From positions 245,346 through 309,345 of the forward strand of contig CAVQSP010000017.1 in the NCBI GenBank assembly GCA_963715985.1: a stretch of DNA of 64,000 nt, in the 5' to 3' direction. A program made the translations under genes and the position numbers. This document shows, piece after piece, positions 45,315-63,033 of this stretch (position 1 is the stretch's first letter; each line of letters starts with the position of its first letter). The stretch comes from an uncultured Thermoleophilia bacterium. GTDB taxonomy: Bacteria; Actinomycetota; Thermoleophilia; UBA2241. The notes beneath the pieces were generated by a model, which saw only the letters and a list, made by a program, of their open reading frames with translations, did not search any database and had not been told where the DNA came from.

Positions 45315-45361
45315 GGCTCTTCATTCTACTCGACGAGGGACGCGCGGGACGCGCGGCCGGT

Positions 45362-46159
45362 TCAGGCGGGCGCGCGGCTGAGGTCGTCGTCGCCTGCATC
45401 TTCGCCGCGCGGACGCGATTCCTTCTTGGGCTGGACCATGCGGGCCAGCGGGATGGAGATCTCGTACAGCACGACGAGCGGGATGAACATGGCGAGCATG
45501 GAGAAGGCGTCCTGGCTGGGCGTGATGACGGCTGCCACGATGGCGCAGATGATGATGGCCCAGCGGCGGTTCTTCTTGAGGAACTTGTCGTCGATCACGC
45601 CCACCTTGGCGAGGAGCACGAGGATGACGGGCATCTCGAACACCGCCCCGAACGCGAGGATGAACAGGGCGACGAACGTGAAGTAGTCGCTGGCCCGGTT
45701 CTGGATGTTGAAGCTGCCGGCGTTGAACCCCAGCAGGAACTGGAGGCCCTTGGGCAGCACGATCAGGTAGCCGAAGGCCACGCCGCCGAGGAAGAGCGCG
45801 GTGGTGGAGATGACGATGGGGTAGAAGTACTTCTTCTCGGTGGACGTGAAGGCCGGTCCCACGTAGGCCCACAACTGCCAGATGAGGAACGGCGAGGCCA
45901 TGAGGATGCCGGCCACCACCCACACCTTGAGGCTGATCATGAAGGGCTCGGTGGGGCTGAACGTGGTGATCTTGTAGGCGGCCGGATCGAGGTTGGGCAC
46001 CTGCTGCAGGGGATACAGCAGCAGGTCGAAGAGGCGGCTGCTGAAGATGGCCGCGATGAGCACCCCGATGGCGAGCGCGATGACCGACCACATGATGCGC
46101 CCGCGCAGCTCGTCGAGGTGCTCGTAGAGGCTGAGGCGCTCCTCGGGTGAGACGGGCAT
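45362..46159 (-). CDS. tatC: Twin-arginine translocase TatC
   Basis: HLDELRGR, P-x-[19 protein letters not shown]. Confidence 0.95.
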
Positions 46160-46162
46160 GGG

Positions 46163-46720
46163 CTACGCGTCCAGGCCGGCAGCCGGTGCGGCCGCGCCGG
46201 CGGGCTCGGCGCCCGCGGTCACGGCGCCGTCCGGCGTCTCGTCGCCATCGGCGGCGGCCGCGGCGCTGGTGGACGGCGCCGTCGGGGCGGCCACGCCCTG
46301 CGGCCAGCCGTCGTCCTCATCCGCCGCGGGCGCCACCTGGACGGGCTTGTCGACGGCTGCGGCGGCGCCGGAGGCGGCCGCGCCGCCGATGACGGTCTTC
46401 GCCATCGACAGGGGGTTCTTGAGGTCGATGGCCATGCCCGTCTTGATGGCGCTCATCGCCTGCGTGGCGCCGGTGCCCTTGAGCTCGTCGCTGACGCCGT
46501 CCTTGACGCTGTTGAAGTCGCCGGCGATGGAGTCCTTGACGCCCTTGAACTCGTCGATGACCTCGTCGAGGCCGAGCTCGGACCGGGCCGAGTCGGTGGC
46601 GCGCCTGAACTCGCGCACGGCGCGCCCCAGGTTGCGGCCGGCCTGCGGCAGCCGGTTGGGCCCGAACACCAGCAGGGCGATGACGAGCACGAGCACGATC
46701 TCCAGGGGGCCGACGCTCAC
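46163..46720 (-). CDS. TatA/TatB family subunit with long acidic tail
   Basis: [22 protein letters not shown]...GRAVREFRR; directly upstream of tatC (TatB-like). Confidence 0.88.
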
Positions 46721-46857
46721 GGGAGGGGTACCTCGAGTCGAGGGGTATAGAGCCTCTTCAATCTTAGGGGGGCCGGGGACTACGGTCAACGCGGCCCCTC
46801 GCGCGCGTGGGGAAGCCTACGGCAGCGGGCGGCAGCGGTCCCGGGACGAGCGAGGAA

Positions 46858-46940
46858 ATCCCTGCAAACCACGTATGAGGCAGGGATACCCCCGGCGGTT
46901 CCTGCGGCAGTTGCGTGGCGCGTTTGCGGTTTGGTATAGT
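46858..46940 (+). promoter_or_regulatory. nuo operon promoter region
   Basis: TTGCGT-N18-TATAGT with TGn extension (46911-46940); upstream inverted repeat ATCCCTGC-N14-GCAGGGAT. Confidence 0.5.
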
Positions 46941-46992
46941 GCGCCCCGACGCCGAGCCCGGACCGACCGGAGCCCAGGCGTCTCACTCTCAC

Positions 46993-47361
46993 ATGATCGC
47001 TGCATACATCACGGACTGGGTCTACGTGTGGCTCTTCATCGTCGCCGGCGGTGCGCTGGTGTGCGTCATCCTGCTGTTCTCCAAGCTCATCAACCCCAGT
47101 CATCCGACGGCCGAGAAGCTCGCCACGTACGAGTGCGGCATCCCCCCGGTGGGCAATCCGTGGGCGCCGTTCGCCGTGCGCTACTACGTGTTCGGGCTCC
47201 TGTTCCTGGTCTTCGACGTGGAGGCCGTGTTCCTGTTCCCGTGGGCGCTGGTGTTCCGCTCGCTGGGCACCTCGGGGTTCATCGAGATGCTGCTGTTCAT
47301 CGCGGTGCTGGGCGTCGGCCTGCTGTACGCCTGGCGCAAGGGGGCTCTCGAGTGGGCGTGA
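46993..47361 (+). CDS. nuoA: Complex I subunit A
   Basis: [25 protein letters not shown]. Confidence 0.95.
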
Positions 47362-47921
47362 ACGACGGCGAACAGAGCCGCATCAAGGCCATGCGGTACC
47401 CCAAGCTCGAGCACTTCAACAAGCCCAACGTCATCACCACCACCGCCGACTTCATCTTCAGCTGGGCGCGCTCGCATTCGGTGTTCCCGTTCACGTACGG
47501 TCTCGCCTGCTGCGCCATCGAGATGCTCAGCTCGGGCTTCGCGCGCTACGACGTGGCCCGGTACGGCATGGAGGTGTTCCGGCCCACGCCTCGCCAGTGC
47601 GACCTCATGATCGTCGCCGGCACCTGCAACGAGAAGATGGCGCCGGTGCTCAAGCGCCTGTACGACCAGATGTCGGAGCCCAAGTGGGTCATCAGCATGG
47701 GCGCCTGCGCCACCAGCGGCGGTCCGTTCTACGACAGCTACAACGTGGTCAACGGCGTGGACAAGATCGTGCCCGTGGACGTCTACATCCCGGGCTGTCC
47801 GCCCCGCCCCGAGGCGCTCTTCCAGGGCCTGCTCGAGCTGCAGGGCAAGATCCAGCGGTTCAAGTTCGTGCCCGAGGCGCCGGAGCTCGAGGCTGAGGCT
47901 CCGGCGGGGAAGAAGGACTGA
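47358..47921 (+). CDS. nuoB: Complex I subunit B
   Basis: [24 protein letters not shown]. Confidence 0.95.
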
Positions 47922-47923
47922 CC

Positions 47924-48418
47924 GTGCCCCTCGAGGTCGGCACCAACCCCATGAGCATGGACGCCATCGCCGCGCGGCTCGTCGCCGACTTCGCCGGCGA
48001 GCTGCAGGACGTGCGGGTGCAGGAGCCGGACACCGTCGTGGCGCGTTGTCCGCGCGCGTCGCTCAAGGCCGTGGCGCGGCGCCTCAAGGAGCACGCTGAG
48101 ATCGGCTATCAGACGCTCAACTTCGTCGCCGGCGTGGACCGGGTCACTCACCTGGAGAGCGTGTACCACGTGTATTCCTGGAAGACCAACACGTGGCTGC
48201 AGTTGTCTGTCGAGGTCCCGCTGGACCCCGCCGAGGTCGACACCGTGACCGACGTCTGGCCGGCCGCCGACTGGCACGAGCGCGAGTCGTGGGACATGGT
48301 CGGCATCGTGTACGTGGGGCATCCCGACCTGCGTCGCATCCTTCTCAAGGACGACTTCATCGGTCACCCGTTGCGCAAGGACTACGTCGACTCGGTGGAG
48401 AACCACCCGCATGTTTGA
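47924..48418 (+). CDS. nuoC: Complex I subunit C
   Basis: [12 protein letters not shown]...GHPDLRRIL...GHPLRKD. Confidence 0.93.
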
Positions 48419-49625
48419 CCAGTTCGCCACCGCCGAGCCGGACGAGGCCGTGAAGCTCGCCCTTCGGCGCATCGAAGAGTCCAACGCGCGCGGCGAGGGC
48501 TCGAACGTCGAGGGCCTCGCCTTCAACGAGGTCGTCGTCAACATGGGCCCGCAGCACCCCTCCACGCACGGCGTGCTGCGCCTCGTGGTCACACTCGACG
48601 GCGAGCTCATCAAGGACGTCATCCCGGTGATCGGCTACCTGCACCGCTCCAAGGAGAAGCTCGCCGAGAAGCGCACCTACTTCCAGTACATCCCCATCAT
48701 CGACCGCACGGAGTACCTCGCCAGCATCAACTGCGAGTGGGGCTACGTCCTCGCCGTCGAGAAGCTCATGGGCATCCGGCCCACGCGGCGGGCGGAGTTC
48801 ATCCGCGTCATCAGCGGCGAGCTCATGCGCATCGCCAGCCACCTGGTCGCCGTCGGCACCTTCACCGCCGACCTCGCACCGCTGGGCACGGCCATGGTCT
48901 TCTACATGTTCCGCGACCGCGAGAAGATCCTCGACCTGCTCGAGTCGCTCAGCGGCGGGCGCATGATGTTCAACTACTTCCGCTTCGGCGGCGTGCGCTA
49001 CGACCTGCCCGACGGCTGGGTCGAGCAGTGCCGCGACGTCATGAAGAAGATGCCCAAGCTCATCGACGAGTACGAGTCGCTGGTCGACACCAACGCGATC
49101 TTCATGCAGCGCTGCATGGGCAAGGGCGTCATCACCCAGCAGGACGTCATGGACTACGGCATCACCGGGCCCAACGCGCGCGCCTCCGGCGTCGCCCTGG
49201 ACCTGCGGCGCACGCGCCCGTACTCCGTGTATCCGGAGCTCGACTTCGAGGTCTGCACCTTGCCGCACGGCGACGTCTTCGACCGCTACAAGGTGCGCAT
49301 GAACGAGATGCGCGAGTCGGTGAAGATCGTGGAGCAGTGCCTGGACATGCTGCCGCGCGGCCCGGTGCAGCTGGGCTCGCTGCGCGCGCCCTACGTCATC
49401 ACGCCGCCGCCGGGCGCCGTGTACGTGGGCCAGGAGAACCCGCGCGGCGAGTACGGCACCTACATCGAGAGCGACGGGTCGCGGTACCCGTACCGGCTCA
49501 AGTTCCGCGACCCCTGCTTCTGCAACCTGCAGCTCTTCCCCAAGATCCTCACCGGCATCAAGATCGCCGACGCCATCGCCGTGTCCGGCAGCATCGACCT
49601 CGTGCTGGGAGGGATCGACCGCTAG
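48411..49625 (+). CDS. nuoD: Complex I subunit D (quinone-site type, no NiFe CxxC motifs)
   Basis: [32 protein letters not shown]-terminal GGIDR. Confidence 0.95.
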
Positions 49626-50745
49626 ATGGACATCGTCGTCGCCATCCTCCGCGCCGTCCTCTTCGTCGTCATCGCCTACTCGGTGCTGATGGTCGCGGCG
49701 CTCGTGAACATCCTCTTCGAGCGCCGCGCCCTGGCCTTCATGCAGGACCGCCTCGGGCCCAACCGCACCGGGCCCCAGGGGCTGCTGCAGAGCGTGGCCG
49801 ACGCCTTCAAGATGATGGGCAAGGAGGACTTCCGTCCGGCTGCGGCCGACCCGGTGCTGTTCACCCTCGGGCCCATCATCGTGATGATCGGCGCCGTGGG
49901 CGTGCAGCTGGTGACTGCCGTACACCAACGGCCTCACCGGCGCCGACCTGAACATCGGCATCATCTTCATCGTCGCCATCACCGGCTTCACGACGCTGGC
50001 CATCCTGCTGGGCGGCTGGTCGTCCCGCAACAAGTACTCGCTGGTCGGGGCCCTGCGCTCCGCCGCCCAGATGATCTCCTACGAGATCCCCATGATCCTC
50101 GGCCTGCTCGTGGTCGCGATGGTGGTGGGCTCTCTGAGCCTCAACGACGTGGTCGAGGCCCAGTCGGGCTATCAGTGGATCGCCTTCTACGCGCCGTTCA
50201 CCTTCCTCATCTTCTACATCGCCTCCATCGCCGAGCTGAACCGCGGCCCGTTCGACCTGCCGGAGTCGGAGTCGGAGCTCGTCGCCGGCTACGTCACGGA
50301 GTACTCGGGCATGCGCTTCGGCATGTTCTACCTCAACGAGTACGGCGGCCTCACGATCATGTCCATGGTCGCCGTCACCCTCTTCTTCGGCGGCTGGCAG
50401 GGGCCGTTCTCCGACGCGCTGGTGTTCTGGGGCGTGTCGTGGATCGGCATCGTCTGGTTCCTGATCAAGTCGTACATCCTGGTGTTCGCGCTCATCTGGA
50501 TCCGCCTCTCGTTCCCGCGTCTGCAGGTCGACCAGCTCATGGCGTTCGCCTGGAAGGTCCTCATCCCGCTGGGCCTGGTCAACATCCTCTGCACGGCCGC
50601 GGTGATGCTGTGGGTCCCGCAGTGGAAGCTCGGCATGGCCGTGTTCAGCTGGGTCTCCCTGATCGCCTTCGTGGGCCTCTTCGACCCGATCCTCAAGCGC
50701 CGCCTGCGCAAGCAGCGTGAGCGCCAGCCGGTGGTGAACGTCTGA
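49626..50745 (+). CDS. nuoH: Complex I subunit H, one frameshift near 49918
   Basis: ERR...QDRLGPNR..GLLQSVADAFK in first frame; NKYSL.GALR..AQMISYE, RGPFDLPESESELVAG in second frame. Confidence 0.92.
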
Positions 50746-51506
50746 TGCTCGGCATGCTCAAGGCCATGCGCACCACGATCAGCCATCTTCCCAAGCGCAA
50801 GATCACGGTGCAGTACCCGGAGCAGCGCGAACGGCTGCCCGAACGCAGCCGCGGCCTCTTCCGTGTGGTCATCGACCCGGCCAGCGGCGAGCCGCGCTGC
50901 CGCTCCTGCACGCTCTGCGAGAGCAACTGCCCGGTGCAGGTCATCCGCGTGAACCACACGAGCAAGTACGAGCTGCCGGTGCCCAACGCGGCGCGCATCA
51001 TGGATGCGCGCCTCGCCGTGCAGGCCGACGCCGACATCAAGGCCCTGCAGCCGGTGCTGGACGACTACTACGAGCACGGCACCGGCCTCATCGCCATGCT
51101 GCAGAACGCGCAGGCGGTGTACGGCTATCTGCCGCGCGTGGCCATCCAGGAGATCGGCCTGCAGACGGGCATCTCGCTGAGTCAGCTCTACGGCGTCGCG
51201 AGCTTCTACAACCAGTTCCGCCTCTCGCCCGTGGGCGAGTACATCATCGACGTGTGTCACGGCACGGCCTGCCACGTGGCGGGGGCCGTGCAGATCACCG
51301 AGGCTCTGGAGGAGGAGCTCGGCATCCCCGACGGCAAGACCACCAAGGACATGAAGTTCACGCTGTCCTCGGTGGCCTGCATGGGGGCGTGCTCGCAGGC
51401 TCCGGTGATGCGCATCGGCGAGAAGACCTACGGCGGCCTCACCCCTGACAAGACGCGCACCATCATCCGCGACTTCATGACCGAGATCGGCGCGGAGAAA
51501 GGGTGA
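50745..51506 (+). CDS. Fusion: N-terminal half of NuoI plus NuoE/HydC-like [2Fe-2S] subunit
   Basis: ITVQYPEQR..LPERSRG...CRSCTLCESNCP (NuoI N-half, single motif), then LQ.AQ..YGYLP, SFYNQF, CHGTAC, CMGAC. Confidence 0.9.
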   Translation: MLGMLKAMRTTISHLPKRKITVQYPEQRERLPERSRGLFRVVIDPASGEPRCRSCTLCESNCPVQVIRVNHTSKYELPVPNAARIMDARLAVQADADIKALQPVLDDYYEHGTGLIAMLQNAQAVYGYLPRVAIQEIGLQTGISLSQLYGVASFYNQFRLSPVGEYIIDVCHGTACHVAGAVQITEALEEELGIPDGKTTKDMKFTLSSVACMGACSQAPVMRIGEKTYGGLTPDKTRTIIRDFMTEIGAEKG

Positions 51507-51517
51507 GCTGAGCACTC

Positions 51518-53470
51518 ATGGCTGACGAGATCATCAACGAGATCGACGAGACCGCTGCGGCCGAGGCGCCGGCGGCCGAGGCCGTCGCCGAGGCGACCCC
51601 GGTCCCCGAGGCCGAGGCGCGCAACGTGCGCGTCGCGGCGACGCCGGGCGGCGGCTACAAGGTCACCGTGTGCGCCGGCACCGCCTGCGTGTTCGCCGGC
51701 TCGATGGCCGTGTACGACGCGTTCGTGCAGGAGGTGCAGACGGCCGGCCTCGGCGACCGCATCGAGGTCTCCGTCATCGGCTGCCACGGGCTCTGCTCCA
51801 TGAGCCCGGTCGTCGTGCTCAGCGACGACACCCTCTACGGGCACCTGCGCCCGCAGGACGTGGGCAAGGTCGTGGAGGAGCACCTCAAGGGCGGCACGCC
51901 GATCGAGAAGTTCCTCTACAAGGACGCGCACACGGGCGAGCGCATCCGCGACTGGCACGACATCGACTTCTACGCGCAGCAGACGCGCATCGCGCTGCGC
52001 GACGTGGGCGTCATCGACCCCGAGAGCCTGGACGAGTACGTGGCGCGCGGCGGCTACGAGGCCGCGCGCATGGCGCTCGGCGAGAAGACGCCCGAGTGGA
52101 TCATCGAGCACGTCACCGACTCGGGCATCCGCGGGCGCGGCGGCGCCGGCTTCCCCACGGGCGTCAAGTGGAAGTTCGCCAACCAGTCGCAGAGCGACGA
52201 GAAGTACCTCATCTGCAACGCCGACGAGGGCGACCCCGGCGCGTTCATGGACTGCTCGATCCTCGAGGGCGACCCGCACGCCGTGGTCGAGGGCATGATC
52301 ATCGGCAGCTACGCCATCGGCGCGCACGAGGGCTACGTGTACGTGCGCGCCGAGTACCCCCTCGCCGTCAAGCGCCTCACCAAGGCGGTCGCCGACGCGG
52401 AGGCGCGTGGCTATCTCGGCAAGGACGTCTTCGGCACCGGCTGGGAGTTCAACCTGCACCTCAAGCTCGGCGCCGGCGCCTTCGTGTGCGGCGAGGAGAC
52501 GGCCCTCATCGCCAGCATCGAGGGCAGGCGCGGCATGCCGCGCACGCGCCCGCCGTTCCCGGCCGTCTCCGGCCTGTGGGGCAAGCCGACCAACATCAAC
52601 AACGTCGAGACCTTCGCCAACATCCCCTGGATCATCATGCACGGCGCCGACGCCTACGCCGCCCTGGGCGTCGAGGGCTGCCGCGGCACCAAGGCCTTCA
52701 GCCTCGCCGGCAAGGTCGTCAACGGCGGCCTCGTCGAGGTGCCCATGGGCTCCACGCTGCGGCACCTCATCTTCGACGTGGGCGGCGGCGTCAAGGACGG
52801 CCGCCAGTTCAAGGCCGTGCAGCTCGGCGGCCCGTCGGGCGGCTGCATCCCGGCCGGCCTCCTCGACACGCCGGTCGACTACGAGAGCCTGGCCGCGACC
52901 GGCGCCATCGTCGGCTCCGGCGGCATGGTGGTGGTGGACGACGAGACCTGCATGGTGGACCTGGCGCGCTTCTTCCTGGACTTCACGCAGAAGGAGTCGT
53001 GCGGCAAGTGCATACCCTGCCGCCTCGGCACCAAGCGCATGCTGGAGACGCTCGACCGCATCATCGCCGGCGACGGCCAGGACGGCGACATCGAGCTGCT
53101 CGAGGAGCTCAGCCACTACATCATGGACGGGTCGCTGTGTGCCCTGGGCGGCACCGCCCCCAACCCCGTGCTCACCACCATCAAGTACTTCCGCGACGAG
53201 TACGAGGCGCACGTGTACGAGAAGCGCTGCCCCGCCGGCAAGTGCAAAGACCTGATCACCTACTACATCGACGCCGACGCCTGCACGGGCTGCATCCTGT
53301 GCGCCAAGAAGTGCCCCACCTCGTGCATCACGGGCGAGAAGAAGCAGCCGCACGTCATCGACGTGAGCAACTGCATCAAGTGCGACACCTGCCGCCAGGT
53401 CTGCAAGTTCGACGCCGTCAAGGTGCGCTCGGGCATCGCCCAGGCTGCGGCCGCCGGACAGGGAGCCTGA
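51518..53470 (+). CDS. nuoF: HydB/StnB-type NuoF (N-terminal [2Fe-2S], FMN/NAD(H) site, C-terminal 2x[4Fe-4S])
   Basis: CAGTAC...CHGLC, GRGGAGFPTG, ADEGDPGAFMD, GGPSGG, ESCGKCIPCR, two C-terminal ferredoxin motifs. Confidence 0.92.
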   Translation: MADEIINEIDETAAAEAPAAEAVAEATPVPEAEARNVRVAATPGGGYKVTVCAGTACVFAGSMAVYDAFVQEVQTAGLGDRIEVSVIGCHGLCSMSPVVVLSDDTLYGHLRPQDVGKVVEEHLKGGTPIEKFLYKDAHTGERIRDWHDIDFYAQQTRIALRDVGVIDPESLDEYVARGGYEAARMALGEKTPEWIIEHVTDSGIRGRGGAGFPTGVKWKFANQSQSDEKYLICNADEGDPGAFMDCSILEGDPHAVVEGMIIGSYAIGAHEGYVYVRAEYPLAVKRLTKAVADAEARGYLGKDVFGTGWEFNLHLKLGAGAFVCGEETALIASIEGRRGMPRTRPPFPAVSGLWGKPTNINNVETFANIPWIIMHGADAYAALGVEGCRGTKAFSLAGKVVNGGLVEVPMGSTLRHLIFDVGGGVKDGRQFKAVQLGGPSGGCIPAGLLDTPVDYESLAATGAIVGSGGMVVVDDETCMVDLARFFLDFTQKESCGKCIPCRLGTKRMLETLDRIIAGDGQDGDIELLEELSHYIMDGSLCALGGTAPNPVLTTIKYFRDEYEAHVYEKRCPAGKCKDLITYYIDADACTGCILCAKKCPTSCITGEKKQPHVIDVSNCIKCDTCRQVCKFDAVKVRSGIAQAAAAGQGA

Positions 53471-53477
53471 GAGGACG

Positions 53478-55955
53478 ATGGCCACCACCGTCGACGACAT
53501 CGCCCGCACGCAGGCCCGCCCCGACCAGGTGCTGGTCAGCATCGACGGCCAGGAGGTCGCCTGCGATCGCGGCGACACCATCCTGGAGGCGGCGCGGCGC
53601 CTCGGCATCCACATCCCCACGCTGTGCTACGAGCCGCGGCTGCCCGCCACGGCCGCCTGCCGCATGTGCATCGTGGAGATCGAGGGCGCGCGCAAGATGG
53701 TGCCGAGCTGCTCCGCGGCCGTCGCCGACGGCATGGTGGTGCGCACCAACACGGACAAGGTGCGCGCCATGCGGCACCTGTACCTCGAGCTGCTGCTGAG
53801 CGACCACAACTCGTTCTGCACGCCGCCCTGCCGCGACGCCTGCCCCACGCACATCAAGATCCCGCAGTTCCTCGAGTACATCGCGCACAAGGACTACAAG
53901 AACGGCGTGCGCAAGCTGCGCGAGGACCTGCCCTTCCCTGCCGTGCTCGGGCGCGTGTGCCCGCGGCCCTGCGAGGGCCCGTGCCGCCGGCAGCTCGTGG
54001 AGCAGCCCATCACCATCTGCCAGCTGCATCGCTTCATGGCCGACCAGACCATCGACGAGGAGCAGGAGGGCGAGCTGCTGCTGCCGGTCGAGCCCAAGGC
54101 CGACACCGGCAAGCGCATCGCCGTGGTCGGCGGCGGCCCGGCGGGCCTGGCCGCCGCCTTCTACGCCCGTCTCGAGGGCCACTCCGTCAAGATCTTCGAG
54201 GCGCTGCCCAAGGTGGGCGGCATGCTGCGCTACGGCATCCCCAGCTACCGCCTGCCCCGCGACGTGGTCGAGAAGGAGACCAACGTCCTGTGGCGCATGG
54301 GCGTCGAGCTGCAGGTCAACAGCCGCCTGGGCGTGGACTACCAGATCGAGGACCTCTTCGACGAGGGCTTCGACACCGTCTTCCTGGCGCTCGGCGCCTT
54401 CAACTCCAACGACATGGGCTGCCCCGGCGAGGACGCCGACGGCGTGGTCACTGCAGTCGACTTCCTCGGCGAGCTCGAGCTCACCGGCGAGGTGCACGTG
54501 GGCCAGAAGGTCACCGTGATCGGCGGCGGCTTCACCGCCATGGACGCCTGCCGCACCTCGATCCGCAAGGGCGCCGCCGAGGTCACCTGTCTGTACCGGC
54601 GCTCGCGCAAGGAGATGCCGGCCCACCACACCGAGGTCGACGAGGCCGAGGAGGAGGGCGTCAAGCTCGAGCTGCTGTGCGCGCCCGTCAAGGTCCTCAC
54701 CGACGCGGCCAACAAGGTGACGGGCATCGAGATGCTGCGCATGGAGCTCGGCGAGCCCGACGCCTCCGGCCGCCGCCGCCCGGTGCCCATCGAGGGCAGC
54801 GAGTTCGTCGTGGAGTGCGACCAGGTCATCACCGCCATCGGCCAGTTCCCCAAGCTGGACGGCACCAGTGAGGAGCAGGGCGTCAAGCGCACCAAGTGGC
54901 GCACCATCGAGGTCGACGACTGGACCTTCCAGACGGACGACCCGCGCGTGTTCGCCGGCGGCGACGTCGTGCTCGGCGCGCAGACCGTGATCCAGGCCGT
55001 CGCCCAGGGCAAGAAGGCGGCCTGGAGCATGGACGCCTACCTGCGCGGCGCCGACATGAAGGAGATCTCGCAGTCGCTGGCCGAGCTCAAGGCCACGCCG
55101 TTCTTCAGCGCGCTCTCGGCCAAGGCCGATCTGGATCCGACCGTGGCGCGCATGGCCGAGATCCCGCCGGTGTTCATCGACATGACCACGGACGTCACGC
55201 ACCCGAGCCCGCCGGCCGACATGCCCAAGCTGTCTCCGGAGGAGCGCCGCACCAACTTCAAGCAGATCGAGCTCGGCTTCCCCGAAGAGGAGGCCGTGCG
55301 CGGCGCCGACCTGTGCCTGGACTGCTACTGCCCGGCCAGCGGCACGTGCGACCTGCAGCGGTACAGCATCGACTACGAGGTCTTCAAGAACCGCTTCCAC
55401 GGCGGCGAGGCGCACGACTACCCGGCCGACTTCCGCCACGACTTCATCATGCGCGAGCCCAACCGCTGCATCAACTGCGGCCGCTGCGTGCGCGTGTGCC
55501 GCATGGAGGTCGGGTCGAGCTGCTACGACAACATGGGCCGCGGCTACGACTCCATCGTCTCCACCGCCGACAACCTGCCGCTGCAGCTCGTGGGCTGCAT
55601 CAGCTGCGGCAAGTGCTCCGAGACGTGCCCGACCGGCTCCATCGAGACCAACCCGCGGCGCCTGGAGAGCTACGACCTCGACGAGAGCCGCTGCATCTTC
55701 TGCGGCGAGTGCGTGGAGGTCTGCCCCTACGACGCCCTCGAGCAGACCGACTTCTTCGAGCTCGCCGGCTACAGCCGCAGCGCGCTCGCCGGCGAGTCGC
55801 TGTTCGTGCGCGAGGCGCGCCCGGCCGACCCGCTGCGCGAGAACGTCAAGGACCTCGTGCCGCACGTGCTCGACGCCGAGCGCGGCAACGGCTGGACGTG
55901 GGAGCCCATCAAGGACGACCCCATCGTGCTGGACGAACCGGGAGGCGGCAGCTGA
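53478..55955 (+). CDS. Fusion: NuoG-like Fe-S N-terminus, inserted GltD/NfnB-like FAD/NADPH domain, 2x[4Fe-4S], C-terminal half of NuoI
   Basis: IPTLC..CRMC, HNSFCTPPC..ACP, GRVCP..CE, GGGPAG, YGIP, YRRS, CINCGRC, CISCGKC, then YDLDESRCIFCGECVEVCP..FELA.YSR. Confidence 0.9.
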   Translation: MATTVDDIARTQARPDQVLVSIDGQEVACDRGDTILEAARRLGIHIPTLCYEPRLPATAACRMCIVEIEGARKMVPSCSAAVADGMVVRTNTDKVRAMRHLYLELLLSDHNSFCTPPCRDACPTHIKIPQFLEYIAHKDYKNGVRKLREDLPFPAVLGRVCPRPCEGPCRRQLVEQPITICQLHRFMADQTIDEEQEGELLLPVEPKADTGKRIAVVGGGPAGLAAAFYARLEGHSVKIFEALPKVGGMLRYGIPSYRLPRDVVEKETNVLWRMGVELQVNSRLGVDYQIEDLFDEGFDTVFLALGAFNSNDMGCPGEDADGVVTAVDFLGELELTGEVHVGQKVTVIGGGFTAMDACRTSIRKGAAEVTCLYRRSRKEMPAHHTEVDEAEEEGVKLELLCAPVKVLTDAANKVTGIEMLRMELGEPDASGRRRPVPIEGSEFVVECDQVITAIGQFPKLDGTSEEQGVKRTKWRTIEVDDWTFQTDDPRVFAGGDVVLGAQTVIQAVAQGKKAAWSMDAYLRGADMKEISQSLAELKATPFFSALSAKADLDPTVARMAEIPPVFIDMTTDVTHPSPPADMPKLSPEERRTNFKQIELGFPEEEAVRGADLCLDCYCPASGTCDLQRYSIDYEVFKNRFHGGEAHDYPADFRHDFIMREPNRCINCGRCVRVCRMEVGSSCYDNMGRGYDSIVSTADNLPLQLVGCISCGKCSETCPTGSIETNPRRLESYDLDESRCIFCGECVEVCPYDALEQTDFFELAGYSRSALAGESLFVREARPADPLRENVKDLVPHVLDAERGNGWTWEPIKDDPIVLDEPGGGS

Positions 55956-56467
55956 TGCCGGGTGGCGACTTCCATCCCTGGCTGTTCTTCATCCTCGCCG
56001 CGTGGATCCTCATCTGCGCCCTCGGCGTCGTGGCCTTCAAGAAGATCATGTACTCGGCCGTGTCCATGGTCGCCTGCTTCCTGGGCGTGGCCTTCGCCTA
56101 CGCCCTCCTGGCGGCGCCGCTGGTGGCCATCGTCCAGCTGCTCGTGTACGTGGGCGCGATCTCCATCGTCATCATCTTCGCCATCATGCTCACCGAGGTG
56201 CAGCACGGCGGCTACGACCTGTTCTTCAACAAGCAGACCGCCTTCGCGGCGCCGCTCGCCGTGGCCGCCGCCGCCGTGGTCATCGCCGTCCTGGCCATGT
56301 CGGACATCGGCGCCGTCGGCACCAAGGCGCTCAACCCCGGCCTGCAGGAGCTCTCGCAGCTGCTGTTCGCCGGCTACGTGTTCCCCTTCGAGCTGGTGTC
56401 GCTCGTGCTGGTCGCGGCGATGATCGGCGCCATCGTGCTGGCGCGCCGCGAGGAGGAGAAGTCGTGA
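55955..56467 (+). CDS. nuoJ: Complex I subunit J
   Basis: QLLVYVGAI..FAIML, YVFPFEL.S..L..AMIGAI. Confidence 0.93.
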   Translation: MPGGDFHPWLFFILAAWILICALGVVAFKKIMYSAVSMVACFLGVAFAYALLAAPLVAIVQLLVYVGAISIVIIFAIMLTEVQHGGYDLFFNKQTAFAAPLAVAAAAVVIAVLAMSDIGAVGTKALNPGLQELSQLLFAGYVFPFELVSLVLVAAMIGAIVLARREEEKS

Positions 56468-56772
56468 GCGCCCTCTACTGGTGGCTCACGCTCGCCGTGC
56501 TGCTCTTCTGCATCGGCGCCTTCGGGGTGCTGGCGCGCCGCAACGTGATCGTCGTCGTCATGTGCCTCGAGCTCATGCTCAACGCCGTCAACATCGCCCT
56601 CGTGGCCGTCTCCAACTTCCGCGGCGGCGCCGAGGGCGCCGGCGAGCTCTTCTCGCTCTTCATCATCGTGCTGGCGGCGTCCGAGGTCACGGTGGGCCTC
56701 GCCATCATCATCGCCAACTACCGCAACCGCCGCACCGTGCAGACCGACCAGTTCGACGAGCTCAAGGGCTGA
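56464..56772 (+). CDS. nuoK: Complex I subunit K
   Basis: RRN...ELMLNAVN, AASE..VGLA, C-terminal LKG. Confidence 0.93.
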   Translation: MSALYWWLTLAVLLFCIGAFGVLARRNVIVVVMCLELMLNAVNIALVAVSNFRGGAEGAGELFSLFIIVLAASEVTVGLAIIIANYRNRRTVQTDQFDELKG

Positions 56773-56784
56773 GCGGGAGCATTC

Positions 56785-58719
56785 GTGGAGGGAGCTCAGC
56801 ACATCATCACCGAGGCGACACAGACGATGAAGATCGCCGTGGCGCTCATCCCGCTGCTGCCGCTGCTCGGCTTCATCCTCACGCTGGTGCTCGGCAAGCG
56901 CTGGGGCACCAAGGCGCACATCCTGCCGGTGGCCCTGGTCACGGGCTCCGCGGCGCTGTGCATCTACGGCTTCATCTGGATCTTCAGCCACCAGCAGGAG
57001 ACGTTCGTCTGGAACGCCTTCACGTGGGTGGCGGCCGGCCGCTTCGAGGTGTCGTGGGGCTTCCAGGTGGACGGCCTCACCGGCGTCATGCTGCTCGTGG
57101 TGGGCGTCATCGGCATGCTCGTGCACTACTACTCCATCGGCTACATGCACGGCGACGAGGGCTACTACCGCTTCTTCGCCTACCTCAACCTGTTCATGTT
57201 CGCGATGTTCGTGCTCATCCTCGCGGACAACTACCTGCTGCTCTTCCTCGGCTGGGAGGGCGTGGGGCTGTGCTCCTACCTGCTGATCTCGTTCTGGTTC
57301 GGCAAGAAGAGCGCCAGCCAGGCCGGCAAGAAGGCGTTCCTGGTCAACCGCGTGGGCGACTTCGGCTTCACGCTGGGCATGTTCCTCATCTTCATGGTCA
57401 CGGGCACGCTGCAGTTCACCGGCGTCTTCGAGAAGGCCGACTCCATCGCCTCGGGCACGCTGCTGTGGATCTGCCTGCTGCTGTTCACCGGCGCCGTGGG
57501 CAAGAGCGCCCAGTTCCCGCTGCACGTGTGGCTGCCGGACGCCATGGAGGGCCCCACCCCGGTCAGCGCCCTGATCCACGCCGCCACCATGGTCAACGCC
57601 GGCGTGTACATGGTGGCGCGCTCCTACCCGCTGTTCCTGCAGTCGCACACGGCGATGCTGGTGGTGATGGGCATCGGCGCCTTCACGGCCATCTACGCGG
57701 CGTACATCGCGATCACCCAGAACGACATCAAGAAGGTGATCGCGTACTCCACCGTCTCGTCGCTGGGCTTCATGTTCCTCGCCCTCGGCGCCGGCGCCTG
57801 GGTGGCCGGCATCTTCTACCTGTTCGCGCACGGCTTCTTCAAGGGCCTCATGTTCCTCTGCTCCGGCTCGGTGATCCACGCCATGGGCGGCGAGCAGGAC
57901 ATGCGCAAGATGGGCGGCCTGCGCAAGAAGATCCCCATCACCTTCTGGACGATGCTCGTCGGCGCCCTCGCCATGGTCGGCATCATCCCGTTCGCCGGCT
58001 TCTGGGCGAAGGACGAGATCATCGGCGCCGCCTTCGTGCGCGGCTACTACGTGGTGTGGGCGGTGGCCATGGTCACCGTGCTGCTCACCGGCATCTACGT
58101 GTTCCGCCTCATCTTCATGACCTTCTGGGGCAAGAGCCGCGCCGACGAAGAGGTGCAGCACCACATCCACGAGTCGCCGCCGATCATGACCGTCCCGCTC
58201 ATCCTCCTCGCCATCCCCGCGGCCGGGCTCGGCCTGCTCGTCGGTCTCCCGCCCGAGGGCGGCTGGCTCAGCCGGTTCCTCGAGCCCGTGTTCTTCGAGT
58301 CGGAGCACGAGGTCTTCACCTGGATCGGCGAGGGCGGTGCCCTCATGGGCCTCTCCCTGATCACCGCCGTCATCGGCATCTTCGTCGCCTACCGCCTGTA
58401 CGTGCGCTCGGTCGACACGCCCGGCCGCATGGCCCATCGCGTGCCGGTGCTGTACAAGGCCAGCTTCAACAAGATGTACATGGACGAGCTCTACAACGTG
58501 GTGGCCATCCGCAGCACCATCGCCTTCGCCGGCTGGCTGTGGACGTTCTTCGACGTGAAGATCATCGACGGCGCCGTGAACGGCGTCGCGCGCCTCTGGG
58601 AGATCTTCGGCGAGCGCCTGCGGCCGCTGCAGACCGGGCGCGTGCAGAACTACGCCCTCGGCATCTTCGCCGGCATGCTCGTGCTGGTCGTCGTGCTCGC
58701 CTGGGTCTGGGGGGCGTGA
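56785..58719 (+). CDS. nuoL: Complex I antiporter subunit L
   Basis: WEGVGLCSYLLI, NRVGD, KSAQFPLHVWLPDAMEGPTPVSALIHAATMV, QTGRVQNY. Confidence 0.95.
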   Translation: MEGAQHIITEATQTMKIAVALIPLLPLLGFILTLVLGKRWGTKAHILPVALVTGSAALCIYGFIWIFSHQQETFVWNAFTWVAAGRFEVSWGFQVDGLTGVMLLVVGVIGMLVHYYSIGYMHGDEGYYRFFAYLNLFMFAMFVLILADNYLLLFLGWEGVGLCSYLLISFWFGKKSASQAGKKAFLVNRVGDFGFTLGMFLIFMVTGTLQFTGVFEKADSIASGTLLWICLLLFTGAVGKSAQFPLHVWLPDAMEGPTPVSALIHAATMVNAGVYMVARSYPLFLQSHTAMLVVMGIGAFTAIYAAYIAITQNDIKKVIAYSTVSSLGFMFLALGAGAWVAGIFYLFAHGFFKGLMFLCSGSVIHAMGGEQDMRKMGGLRKKIPITFWTMLVGALAMVGIIPFAGFWAKDEIIGAAFVRGYYVVWAVAMVTVLLTGIYVFRLIFMTFWGKSRADEEVQHHIHESPPIMTVPLILLAIPAAGLGLLVGLPPEGGWLSRFLEPVFFESEHEVFTWIGEGGALMGLSLITAVIGIFVAYRLYVRSVDTPGRMAHRVPVLYKASFNKMYMDELYNVVAIRSTIAFAGWLWTFFDVKIIDGAVNGVARLWEIFGERLRPLQTGRVQNYALGIFAGMLVLVVVLAWVWGA

Positions 58720-58720
58720 C

Positions 58721-60309
58721 GTGACCTGGAGCGACCAGATCGGCCTCCCCATCCTCAGCCTCATCACCTTCCTGCCGCTCGCCGGCGTCGTGCTCATGCT
58801 GCTCTTCGGCCGCGGGCGCCCGCAGGTCTACAAGGTGATCGCCCTCGTCTCCACGCTGGCCGCGTTCGCGCTCAGCATCTGGATGATGGTCGCCTTCGAC
58901 ACCAAGGCCAAGGGCATGCAGTTCGTCGAGGACGTGATGTGGATCAAGCAGTTCAACATCCACTACAGCTTCGGCGTGGACGGCATCGCCGCCCTGCTGC
59001 TGTTCCTCACCACGTTCCTCGGCGTCATCGTGATCATCGGCAGCTGGAACTACGTGAAGGACAGGGAGCGGGGCTTCTTCGCCTCCCTGCTGCTGCTGCA
59101 GGTCGGCATGGCCGGCGTGTTCTGCGCCACCGACCTCTTCCTCTTCTACGTGTTCTGGGAGGTCATGCTGGTGCCGATGTACTTCATCATCGGTATCTGG
59201 GGCGGGCCGCGGCGCATCTACGCGGCCATCAAGTTCTTCCTCTTCACGCTCGTCGGCAGCCTGCTCATGCTGATCGCCATCATCGTGGTGGTGTACGCGG
59301 CCAAGAGCGGCCTGGGCCACATCACCTTCGACATCCAGGAGCTCGGGCGGCAGGTGTACACGTACCACATCCAGTTCTGGGCCTTCCTCGCCTTCTTCGT
59401 GGCCTTCGCCATCAAGGTGCCGATGTTCCCGGTGCACACCTGGCTCCCGGACGCCCACGTCGAGGCGCCCACGGCGGGCTCGGTGATCCTGGCCGGCGTG
59501 CTGCTGAAGATGGGTGGATACGGCATCCTGCGCTTCTGCCTGCCGTTCTTCCCGGACGCCGCCGTCACGTTCATCCCCTACATCGTGGCGCTCTCGGTGA
59601 TCGCCATCGTGTACGGGGCCCTGGTGTCGATGGTGCAGAAGGACCTCAAGAAGCTGGTCGCCTACTCGAGCGTGAGCCACATGGGCTTCGTGACGGCCGG
59701 CATCTTCGCCGCCATCGCCGTGGTGGGCAACGCCGGCGGGCATGGAGGGCGCCATCCTGGTGATGTTCAGCCACGGCCTGCTCACGGGCGCCCTCTTCCT
59801 CATGGTCGGCTACATGTACGAGCGCACGCACACGCGGCAGATCGCCGACCTGGGGCAGCTGGCCAAGCCGCTGCCCATCATGGCCGGCTTCTTCCTCTTC
59901 TTCGTGTTCGGCTCGCTGGGGCTGCCCGGGCTCAGCGGGTTCGTGGGCGAGTTCCTGAGCCTGCTCGGGCTGTTCGCCTACTCGCACTGGCTGGCGGCGG
60001 TGGCGGCGCTCGGCGTGATCCTCGCCGCCGCCTACCTGCTCTGGATGTTCCAGCGCACCATGTTCAACGACCGCGGCGACGCCGAGGTCAAGCCCGCGGG
60101 TCCGCTCCACGACCTCGACCCTGCGTGAGATCGTCACGCTGGTGCCGCTCGTCGCCCTGGTCATCTGGGTCGGCGTCTATCCGGTCACGTGGCTCAACTA
60201 CCTGCACGTGCCCGTCAACGAGATCCTGGACCGCGTCACGCCGGCGCTGAGCAGCGCCCATACGCACGCCCTGGCCCAGCTCGTCGACGCCGCCAAGGGG
60301 CTGTTCTAG
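58721..60309 (+). CDS. nuoM: Complex I antiporter subunit M, two frameshifts (about 59740 and 60120)
   Basis: FYVFWE, KVPMFPVHTWLPDAHVEAPT, AYSSVSHMG; then SHGL, GLPGLSGFVGE; then REI..L.PL....W.GVYP ending TAG 60309. Confidence 0.92.
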
Positions 60310-61845
60310 ATGGGCGCCAACAACGCCATCGTCGTCATCCTGCCGGGCGTGGTGATCGCCGCGGCCGCGGCCCTGGTCTTCATCGTCGACCTCTTCACCT
60401 CGCGCAAGGGCGTGCTCGCCTGGCTCGCGGCCGCCGGGCTCGTCGCCGGCGCGGCCGTGGCCGTCGGCCAGTGGATCACGTACTCAGGCGGCCTGGCCTT
60501 CAACGCGCGCAAGCCCGAGAGCGGCTTCGCCGGCATGGTGTCCCTCGACAAGTACGCCGTGTTCTGCGTGGTGCTGTTCGCGGCCATCGGCGTGGCCACG
60601 GTGATGCTGTCGGACTCGTACCTCGCCCGCCGTCACGCCGCCCGCGGCGAGTTCTACGGGCTCCTGCTGCTCATCGTCAGCGGCATGATCGGCCTCGCCA
60701 TCAGCACCGACGTCATCGCCTTCTTCGTCTCGTTCGAGCTCATGTCGCTGCCCACGTACATCCTCGCCGGCTACCTGTGGCGCGACGAGCGCTCGGGCGA
60801 GGCGTCGATCAAGTACTTCGTCACCGGCGCCTTCTCCTCGGCCATCCTGGCCTTCGGCCTGGCGCTGCTGTACGGCGCCACCGGCCAGACCACCTATGCA
60901 GGTATCGCCAAGGGCCTGAGCACGCTCACCGCCCCGGACGCGCGCGGCTTCCTCGTGCTCGCCTTCGTGCTCGTGGTCACGGGCTTCGGCTTCAAGATCT
61001 CGGCGGTGCCGTTCCACAGCTGGGCGCCGGACGTGTACGAGGGCGCGCCCACGCCGGTCACCGCCTTCATGTCCACGGGCATCAAGGCCGCCGCCTTCGC
61101 CGGCTTCGCCAAGCTCTTCGTGGTCGCCGCAAGCATCCAGTGGCAGCTGTGGGTGCACACCATGACGATCCTCGCCGTCATCACCATGATCGTCGGGAAC
61201 GTGCTGGCGCTGCCGCAGCGCAACCTCAAGCGCATGCTGGCGTACTCCAGCATCGCCCACGCCGGCTACCTCACGCTGGGCCTCATCGCGGCGGGCACGT
61301 CCGGCGACAGCCTCGGCGTCTCGGCGATCCTCTTCTACCTCGTCACCTACGCGCTCATGAACCTCGGCGCCTTCGGCACGCTCATCTGGATCCGCAACCG
61401 CCGTGCCTTCCGGTACACGCTGGACGAGATGGCCGGGCTCGGCAGGTCCATGCCCTGGCCCGGCATGCTGATGGCCGTGTTCATGGTGTCGCTGGTCGGC
61501 ATCCCGCCGACGGCCGGCTTCTGGGGCAAGTTCTACCTGTTCACGGCCGTCATCCAGGCCGACCTCACGTGGCTCGCCATCGTGGCCGTGATCATGAGCG
61601 CCGTGTCCGCGTACTACTACCTGCGCGTGGTCTGGTACATGTACTTCCGCGAGGCGGAGGCCGGCGAGGCCGCCGCCGCGGGCGCCGCCGCGACCGAGCT
61701 CGTGCCCGCCAATCCTGGGACGTCCCAGGCCGGCGTGGCCGCCGCGGTCGTCATCTGCGCCATCGGCGTCATCGCCGTCGGTCTGTTCCCCGGCCCGCTG
61801 CTGCACGCCGCGCAGGGCGCCGTGCGCGTCGTCCTCGGCGGGTGA
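60310..61845 (+). CDS. nuoN: Complex I antiporter subunit N
   Basis: EASIKYF, FKISAVPFHSWAPDVYEGAPTP, KRMLAYSSIAHAGY, GIPPTAGF.GK. Confidence 0.95.
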   Translation: MGANNAIVVILPGVVIAAAAALVFIVDLFTSRKGVLAWLAAAGLVAGAAVAVGQWITYSGGLAFNARKPESGFAGMVSLDKYAVFCVVLFAAIGVATVMLSDSYLARRHAARGEFYGLLLLIVSGMIGLAISTDVIAFFVSFELMSLPTYILAGYLWRDERSGEASIKYFVTGAFSSAILAFGLALLYGATGQTTYAGIAKGLSTLTAPDARGFLVLAFVLVVTGFGFKISAVPFHSWAPDVYEGAPTPVTAFMSTGIKAAAFAGFAKLFVVAASIQWQLWVHTMTILAVITMIVGNVLALPQRNLKRMLAYSSIAHAGYLTLGLIAAGTSGDSLGVSAILFYLVTYALMNLGAFGTLIWIRNRRAFRYTLDEMAGLGRSMPWPGMLMAVFMVSLVGIPPTAGFWGKFYLFTAVIQADLTWLAIVAVIMSAVSAYYYLRVVWYMYFREAEAGEAAAAGAAATELVPANPGTSQAGVAAAVVICAIGVIAVGLFPGPLLHAAQGAVRVVLGG

Positions 61846-61904: not shown

Positions 61905-62125
61905 TCAGCCTGAGCTGCCGTGAGGGTGCTCGCAGGGCAGCGAGCAGGCCGAGCAGAGGCTGTCGACGTCGCCAGGCTCGTCCCCGAGCTCCACGGCTAT
62001 GCCGTGGAACGGATGCCGGCAGTACCACGTCACGGTGATGCCATCGGCGCCTCTTCTCTGACGATCAGGCTTTGCCGGATGGCCGTCTTCTCGCAGACGA
62101 GGTATGGGCAGGCTGAGCCGGTCAT
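61905..62125 (-). CDS. Small Cys/His-rich protein hidden by a probable 1-nt deletion near 62050
   Basis: MTGSACPYLVCEK...REE/(G)ADGITVTWYCRHPFHG...LCSACSLPCEHPHGSSG*; span is 221 nt, one short of 74 codons. Confidence 0.45.
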
Positions 62126-62256
62126 GTCACGGGAGATTATCTCTCAACGGCCGCGGCTTGGCGCGTATCCGTGCCTCGCGACATCCCGCTATACTCATTG
62201 ACCCGGGCGAGCGGCCCGGCGCATGGGTTCAGCAACGATCAGACAGGGCGGTGCGC

Positions 62257-63033
62257 GTGAACATCCTCTTCGTCGGCGACGTCTTCGGGCAGCCCGGCCG
62301 CGACGCCCTGCTGCGCTGGCTGCCCGGCTACCGCGCGGAGCACGCCGTCGACTTCGTCATCGCCAACGGCGAGAACGTGGCCAACGGCGCCGGCATCACC
62401 AGCAAGCTCGCGCTCAAGCTGCTCGGCGGCGGCGTCGACGTGCTCACCACCGGCAACCACGTCTGGCGCCAGCGCGAGGTGTATTCATTCCTGGCAACGG
62501 ACGAGCGCATCGTCAGGCCGGCCAACTACCCCGCCGGCGCCCCCGGGCGCGGGCTCACCGTGCGGCCCGCCGCCGACGGCAGCGAGGTCGCGGTCATCAA
62601 CCTCGCCGGCGAGCTCTTCATGGGCACCGGCATGTCGCCGTTCCGCATCGTCGACCGCCTCGTCGAGGAGGCGCAGACGCTGGCCGAGGTGATCGTCGTC
62701 GACCTGCACGCCGAGGCGACCAGCGAGAAGGTCGCCATGGGCCACTACCTGGACGGGCGCGTGACCGCCGTTCTGGGCACGCACACGCACGTGCAGACCT
62801 CCGACGCGCGCGTGCTCCCCGGCGGCACCGCCTACATGACCGACGTCGGCATGACCGGCCCGCTGGAGTCGGTGATCGGGGTGCGCACCGAGATCATCGT
62901 GCGCCGCTTCCTCACCGAGCTGCCGGCGATGTTCGAGGTCGCGGACGGGCCCGTGCGCCTGGACGCCGCCCTCATCTCCGTGGAGGGCGGCCGCGCCGCG
63001 GCGATCGAGGCGTTCGAGGTCATCCTCGGCTAG
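62257..63033 (+). CDS. ymdB: YmdB/TIGR00282 metallophosphoesterase
   Basis: LFVGDV.G, NGEN, TGNH, RPANYP, DLHAEATSEK, GTHTHVQT, TDVGMTGP. Confidence 0.9.
   Translation: MNILFVGDVFGQPGRDALLRWLPGYRAEHAVDFVIANGENVANGAGITSKLALKLLGGGVDVLTTGNHVWRQREVYSFLATDERIVRPANYPAGAPGRGLTVRPAADGSEVAVINLAGELFMGTGMSPFRIVDRLVEEAQTLAEVIVVDLHAEATSEKVAMGHYLDGRVTAVLGTHTHVQTSDARVLPGGTAYMTDVGMTGPLESVIGVRTEIIVRRFLTELPAMFEVADGPVRLDAALISVEGGRAAAIEAFEVILG

Follow-up and report, generated by a model that had tools for sequence, protein, structure and literature searches.

A Thermoleophilia complex I operon in which nuoI is split into two halves around a three-gene module of the Bfu kind

We analysed a 64,000-nucleotide stretch of DNA (the window) from an uncultured Thermoleophilia bacterium (GCA_963715985.1, contig CAVQSP010000017.1) in which a complex I operon, at positions 46993-61845 of the plus strand, has the gene order nuoA-B-C-D-H-[I(N)::E]-F-[G/GltD::I(C)]-J-K-L-M-N. 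The nuoI gene occurs in two separate halves, I(N) and I(C), each fused to a gene of the material that separates them, and the operon probably encodes a working respiratory complex I of Thermoleophilia with NuoI in two pieces flanking a three-gene flavin and iron-sulphur (FeS) module of the Bfu kind. All 11 core complex I subunits (A, B, C, D, H, I, J, K, L, M and N) are co-encoded, with I as two halves, and all of the ordinary flanking genes match Nuo families (both NCBIfam). The open reading frames (ORFs) of the two fusions, 50745-51506 and 53478-55955, are both open on the plus strand, and the features of the split and of the inserted module are the following.

50745-51506, plus strand: I(N)::E fusion of 253 amino acids (TIGR01971 and PF01257)
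50766-50966, plus strand: N-terminal half of NuoI (TIGR01971 positions 2-66; Nqo9 residues 7-73; C52, C55, C58, C62)
51054-51476, plus strand: NuoE/BfuC-like, thioredoxin-like [2Fe-2S] domain (PF01257, residues 104-243, 1.1e-46)
51518-53470, plus strand: NuoF/BfuB-like subunit of 650 amino acids (PF01512, PF10589, PF01257 and Fer4 families; TIGR01959, 500.7 bits)
53478-55955, plus strand: G/GltD::I(C) fusion of 825 amino acids (Pfam and NCBIfam domain matches)
55644-55790, plus strand: C-terminal half of NuoI (TIGR01971 positions 67-115; Nqo9 residues 77-130; C739, C742, C745, C749)

The NuoI profile TIGR01971 has 121 positions, the first stretch of which matches residues 8-74 of the shorter fusion at 50.3 bits and the second residues 723-771 of the longer fusion, which as a whole protein scores 61.8 bits. 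Neither half attains the cut-off of 113.05 bits, so no single-chain NuoI is encoded in this operon, and because their coverage is complementary the two pieces meet exactly at profile positions 66/67. The gene order and the divided NuoI with two open, in-frame fusions, as proposed in the initial annotation, are thus borne out by both the ORFs and the profile coverage. The N half contains the N-terminal segment of NuoI and the first CxxCxxCxxxCP motif, and the C half contains the second. The Thermus thermophilus Nqo9 structure (2fug_9) aligns with the halves at residues 7-73 and 77-130, bovine NDUFS8 is covered at residues 30-95 and 103-142, and a visual comparison with the genome's own intact NuoI puts the split in the hairpin that separates the two Cys motifs. 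The order of canonical NuoI/Nqo9/NDUFS8 (TYKY), from the N-terminal segment through the two Cys motifs to the C-terminal FE..Y region, is kept, but the canonical protein is one polypeptide of about 150-230 amino acids, whereas here there are two, about 4.7 kb apart in the DNA.

The split-NuoI architecture is real, conserved and under selection. The cysteines of the first half were invariant in 21 of 21 orthologues and those of the second in 19 of 19; conservation is among the highest in I(N) and I(C), with mean column identities of 0.84 and 0.88 vs 0.63-0.76 for the linkers, and nonsynonymous divergence (pN) was below synonymous divergence (pS) in all 16 pairwise comparisons. The 253-residue fusion had 1756 matches at E <= 1e-10, and every one of the 120 listed spans 96-100% of its length with 64-99% identity. 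Scanning one genome per species returned 80 loci, comprising 54 of the nuo type, 13 paralogues in por operons and 13 soluble E-F paralogues without the N half. Nearly all nuo-type loci come from metagenome-assembled genomes titled Thermoleophilia or Actinomycetota; other phylum labels occur on three short contigs, namely L085 in the por group and the nuo-type L013 and L062, which are 69-87% identical to the remaining nuo-type loci. Directly upstream of the fusion lies nuoH in 50 of the 54, whereas the remaining four start at the fusion gene or within it. In 38/38 nuo-type loci that reach far enough, I(C) forms the end of G/GltD and nuoJ follows (the other 16, which stop within 3.5 kb, were left out of this count). 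The split occurs in two families of the class, f1 and f6, and among 401 genomes sampled across the phylum the N half turned up in these two alone, save for one weak match in a reading frame the size of an ordinary NuoI.

The genes on either side of the module are as follows.

46993-47361, plus strand: nuoA (NF005839 NuoA, 7.9e-35; the match starts at residue 27 of ORF 46915-47361)
47358-47921, start approximate, plus strand: nuoB (TIGR01957, 232 bits, over cut-off)
47924-48418, plus strand: nuoC (TIGR01961, 7.7e-35)
48411-49625, plus strand: nuoD (NF004739, 445 bits, over the NuoD cut-off)
49626-50745, plus strand: nuoH (both pieces have NuoH-family matches; two frames in the window)
55955-56467, plus strand: nuoJ (NF005168, 2.1e-32)
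56464-56772, start approximate, plus strand: nuoK (NF004320, 111 bits, over cut-off)
56785-58719, plus strand: nuoL (NF005141, 740 bits)
58721-60128, plus strand: nuoM (tblastn to the nuoM of contig C13; two frames in the window)
60310-61845, plus strand: nuoN (TIGR01770, 407 bits)

The NuoB translation shows a CC...GAC...GCPP pattern, whose cysteines we take to be those expected for cluster N2.

Two of these genes, nuoH and nuoM, are frameshifted in the window, and more frameshifts occur elsewhere in the assembly, which could mean that the fusions are themselves assembly or frameshift artefacts or parts of a decaying pseudogene cluster. We consider this extremely improbable. The one extra base in nuoH, at 49914, is missing from DNA contigs of runs X1 and X14, that in nuoM, near 59733-59738, is left out in contigs of runs X1, X14 and X20, and each gene is in a single frame in relatives; because neither the independent DNA runs nor the relatives have the extra bases, both frameshifts are assembly indel errors and not marks of pseudogenes. 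At the fusion junctions, where the initial annotation had allowed for a misassembly, no indel is reported in the contigs of the independent DNA runs, and the same fusions recur in the 54 nuo-type loci, which stem from many independently deposited genomes. Elsewhere in the same assembly, nuoD on contig C13 and genes on contig C20 show frame changes by tblastn.

An intact NuoI was also looked for in a class sample of 151 Thermoleophilia genomes, among them 25 of the window's own family, f1, and 24 of the second family, f6. A NuoI over the cut-off was found in 115 of the 151, including 9/25 f1 and 7/24 f6 genomes, and 36 had none: matches were only sub-threshold in 16/25 f1 and 16/24 f6 genomes, and the remaining four comprise two genomes without any match, one with a truncated match and one with a match at a contig end. 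On its contig C13 the source genome encodes a canonical nuo operon of 14 genes, whose nuoI is intact (159.7 bits), so the possibility raised in the initial annotation, of an intact nuoI elsewhere, is real for this genome. Its relatives differ: at E <= 1e-6, none of the five near-complete genomes of the same genus (93-100% complete, one of them a single 1.66-Mb contig) has a NuoI over the cut-off, and all five have the two halves, covering positions 2-66 and 68/71-115/117, about 4.8 kb apart. In these genomes, then, the split NuoI must be the working one, and an intact nuoI cannot generally serve the split complex. Given the C13 operon and the family members with an intact NuoI, the halves could be vestigial, with an intact NuoI from elsewhere filling the position and E-F-G/GltD forming a soluble, Nfn/Stn-like transhydrogenase within the operon. 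Against this stand the five genomes, the conservation of the halves above that of the linkers with all eight cysteines invariant, and the TGATG overlaps that join the nuoH stop to the start of I(N)::E and the stop of G/GltD::I(C) to the start of nuoJ, and together they make a vestigial NuoI very unlikely. The split operon is the only complex I in several Thermoleophilia genomes and so bears on the respiration of these bacteria, which the metagenome runs matching the region place in wetlands and soil.

Judged by its homologies, the module between the halves belongs to the Bfu (NfnABC/StnABC) kind, so that the term electron-input module used in the initial annotation holds but can be narrowed to the Bfu/Nfn/Stn type. 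The large and small subunits match those of Caldicellulosiruptor saccharolyticus NfnABC (9BOV; identity of the entry confirmed in the text of PMC11829005) at 9e-189 and 6e-46, those of Sporomusa ovata StnABC (8OH5) at 7e-164 and 2e-42, and those of an archaeal NfnABC (9n5u) at 3.3e-157 and 5.9e-47; the best PDB matches of the NuoE-like part are the NfnC chains 9n5u_C and 9bov_C. The E part corresponds to BfuC, being a NuoE-like [2Fe-2S] subunit by PF01257. The F subunit corresponds to BfuB, with Pfam domains at residues 18-121, 199-370, 481-565 and 582-635 that give an N-terminal 2Fe-2S thioredoxin-like domain, a core for flavin mononucleotide (FMN) and NADH, an N3-type cluster and a C-terminal 2x[4Fe-4S] domain. 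The third protein runs from 2Fe-2S (17-92) through GltD (114-524), which has two Rossmann motifs, and NuoG/HoxU-type FeS (about 611-722) to I(C) and a tail; it corresponds to BfuA of the Nfn type (NF009454, 628 bits; alignment to 9bov_A over residues 18-745), and both GxGxxG motifs of GltD are invariant among orthologues. The module thus resembles the soluble NfnABC (9BOV/9BP5) and StnABC (8OH5) in its three same-family subunits, their domain order, a large subunit aligned over 17-749 and both flavin sites. The large subunit has no FdhF-like C-terminal domain of the kind found in NfnA/StnC, since 9bov_A and 8oh5_C cease to align near residues 745-749 and what remains is I(C), which stands in place of the FdhF-like end. 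NfnABC and StnABC are soluble and, as described in PMC10482914, their large subunit ends FdhF-like, whereas in the window I(C) is found there, I(N) is on the small subunit and the genes lie within a nuo operon.

How the halves pair, which substrates are used and which way the electrons flow are matters of inference. The two halves would pair and rebuild the 2x[4Fe-4S] fold, with each cluster ligated by cysteines of both chains, and the paired halves would dock the module onto NuoB, NuoC, NuoD and NuoH. In NuoI, the cluster nearer NuoG is held by the first three cysteines of motif two and the cluster nearer N2 by those of motif one, a layout that would agree with I(C) sitting on the G part and with an N-terminus of I(N) in contact with NuoH. 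Electrons could enter from NADH at the FMN of F, from NADPH at the flavin adenine dinucleotide (FAD) of GltD and possibly from reduced ferredoxin at the C-terminal 2x[4Fe-4S] of F, and would run along the FeS chain of the G part to N6a/N6b, N2 and menaquinone, with proton pumping coupled to this flow; a reverse course is possible too. In NfnABC and StnABC, as outlined in PMC10482914, NADPH is oxidised at the GltD FAD and FeS clusters lead to a bifurcating core, centred on FMN, at which NAD and ferredoxin are reduced, and the FdhF-like C-terminal clusters of StnC are a side branch off the main path that is dispensable for electron transfer. In the split complex this former dead end would have become the exit towards N6a/N6b, N2 and menaquinone.

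The same architecture may instead work mainly in reverse, with NAD(P)+, ferredoxin or both being reduced at the expense of menaquinol and the proton-motive force to serve anabolism or CO2 fixation. The genome has many Bfu-like modules, and the closest paralogues of the present one are soluble (C13:521218-527319 and C10:180027-184493), with the E-F pair placed directly after fhs and folD of the Wood-Ljungdahl methyl branch; the ferredoxin-type C-terminal clusters of F would also suit such a role, and Lücker et al. (2013) proposed reverse flow to ferredoxin for a related Bfu-like complex I, the NUO-2 of Nitrospina (text of PMC3578206). However, sequence does not set the direction, and the status of the operon as sole complex I in several genomes suits forward respiration at least equally, so we regard a mainly reverse enzyme as rather unlikely.

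Variants of the operon differ in what lies between the two halves. In family f6, locus L090 (G048:C44, 6890-11291, minus strand) reads A-B-C-D-H-[I(N)::E-remnant::F]-[G/GltD::I(C)]-J..N; its first fusion, of 608 residues, has an F part without the N-terminal 2Fe-2S and the C-terminal 2x[4Fe-4S] domains, and an 843-residue G/GltD::I(C) follows. In locus L056 (10001-14273) the split is retained, but the FMN motif of F is degenerate and GltD contains the 2x[4Fe-4S] domain that otherwise ends F. Both variants show that the NuoI split is constant and that the module within it varies. A paralogous cassette lies in a pyruvate-oxidoreductase operon on contig C11 (250386-257909; 2386-9909 of locus L092), in the order porG-porD-porA-[half-ferredoxin::E]-F-[G/GltD::half-ferredoxin::PorB]. 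Besides NuoE, only NuoI models match its N-terminal piece (NF004536, 6e-8), with a match that extends upstream of the Cys motif, and its third protein ends in PorB (357 bits). This order is kept in 13/13 por-type loci (L064, L069-L072, L074, L075, L078, L079 and L084-L087), and G/GltD, half-ferredoxin and PorB are in one frame in 11 of them, the other two being cut by contig ends.

Several observations weigh against reading the window operon as a working, Bfu-fed complex I, in addition to the intact nuoI on contig C13. RNA-library contigs (X20 and X23) that fall on the module are short and only 90-95% alike, and so give no evidence for transcription of this gene. For the structure prediction proposed in the initial annotation we co-folded the two halves (residues 640-825 of ORF 53478-55955 with residues 1-100 of ORF 50745-51506, custom alignments, two 4Fe-4S clusters); the interface score ipSAE was 0.51 (runs 0.53, 0.46 and 0.51) vs 0.00 for the best control, a verdict of weak support for their pairing, with a partner predicted local distance difference test (pLDDT) value of at least 54 and contact agreement of at least 72%. 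The mark used was attained by 58 of 80 solved complexes and by 2 of 110 mismatches, and at 0.60 or less by 7 of the 80 and by both mismatches; because intact NuoI structures have been solved, the pass may reflect likeness to them. The f6 and L056 variants are without the Bfu-specific clusters or the FMN motif, which means that bifurcation is not a constant feature of the architecture. Finally, in a quick tree of the F core, from which rows with high-scoring segment pairs shorter than 330 residues or with stops were dropped, the nuo-type F genes do not fall together and the starred branches force at least four changes, a mosaic from which it follows that function may differ between lineages.

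The pattern of this tree suggests exchange between nuo and por cassettes, with long branches that make the deep placements unsure. The nuo-type F of L051/L091 is sister to the por-type F of L078, of apparently the same assembly, with a Shimodaira-Hasegawa-like approximate likelihood ratio test (SH-aLRT) support of 97, which hints at gene conversion between the cassettes. It is conceivable, and we put it forward only tentatively, that the split ferredoxin is a portable connector by which a cassette is wired covalently either to the Q-module of complex I or to PorB, with the inner genes swapped between paralogues. If so, a proton-pumping enzyme would join the NADH, NADPH, ferredoxin and menaquinone pools through a bifurcating core, and the halves would form a natural heterodimeric 2x[4Fe-4S] ferredoxin of the sort assumed for the ancestor of the fold. 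A ferredoxin fold made of two chains would also be of interest for ideas of the origin of that fold by duplication.

The initial annotation knew of no described complex with this architecture. This stands for the split, as no description of a split NuoI was found in the literature searched, its supplements excepted; a Bfu-fed complex I as such is among the enzymes that Schut et al. (2022) predicted, namely Nuo-Bfu, Por-Bfu and Mbh-Bfu (PMC9304861). Nuo-Bfu is described there as 14-gene operons of Deferribacteres, Proteobacteria, Planctomycetes and Nitrospirae in which the module replaces NuoEFG. In common with Nuo-Bfu and with NUO-2 of Nitrospina/Kuenenia, the window operon has a Bfu-type NADH module, an F with extra FeS clusters and module genes in mid-operon (texts of PMC9304861 and PMC3578206), and menaquinone, the third substrate proposed for Nuo-Bfu (PMC9304861), would have that role here as well. 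In contrast to Nuo-Bfu as described, with an intact separate NuoI and no GltD, the module of the window lies inside nuoI, is fused at both ends to its halves and has a large subunit with GltD; the window operon is not one of 14 subunits with a separate intact NuoI. In the main text of PMC9304861, as distinct from its supplements, there is no occurrence of 'split', 'fused', 'GltD' or 'Actinobacteria'. What is new here is thus the division of NuoI, its fusion to both ends of the module, the presence of GltD in that module and, in some genomes, the status of sole complex I, the Bfu-fed complex I itself being in print as a prediction. The por cassettes likewise resemble Por-Bfu in that the one on C11 and the 13 loci combine PorD, PorA and PorB with E, F and G, and go beyond Por-Bfu as described in having NuoI-like half-ferredoxins at both cassette ends and a GltD::half-ferredoxin::PorB fusion.

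With the insert removed, the order in the window is ABCDHIJKLMN, exactly that of complex I-like enzymes with 11 subunits. Their electron donor is a long-standing open question: as discussed in PMC11238625, it is unknown and not operon-encoded, whereas here a donor module is covalently joined to NuoI. The fusion shows one answer to the donor question together with a docking point, and offers a defined target for testing Bfu-type bifurcation coupled to quinone reduction and proton pumping, which is so far no more than a prediction (PMC9304861).

Some further observations concern relatives and neighbours of the operon. Among 1.84 billion representatives there was one distant full-length I(N)::E, P0124 (41% identity), which is lysine-rich and has one relative, P0284; these two proteins may represent a second lineage with the split, and a metagenome scan with P0124 found no relative. 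Four proteins with a single Cys motif before NuoE (P0139, P0162, P0225 and P0251) look HdrA-type and not like NuoI, and were set aside. The soluble paralogues also include a separate GltD::formate-dehydrogenase-like protein, itself frameshifted in the assembly. Around the window operon, genes named from their translations only are, on the 5' side at 43059-46789 of the minus strand, class A penicillin-binding-protein-like, tatC-like and tatA/B-like and, on the 3' side at 62104-63033, metallophosphoesterase-like.

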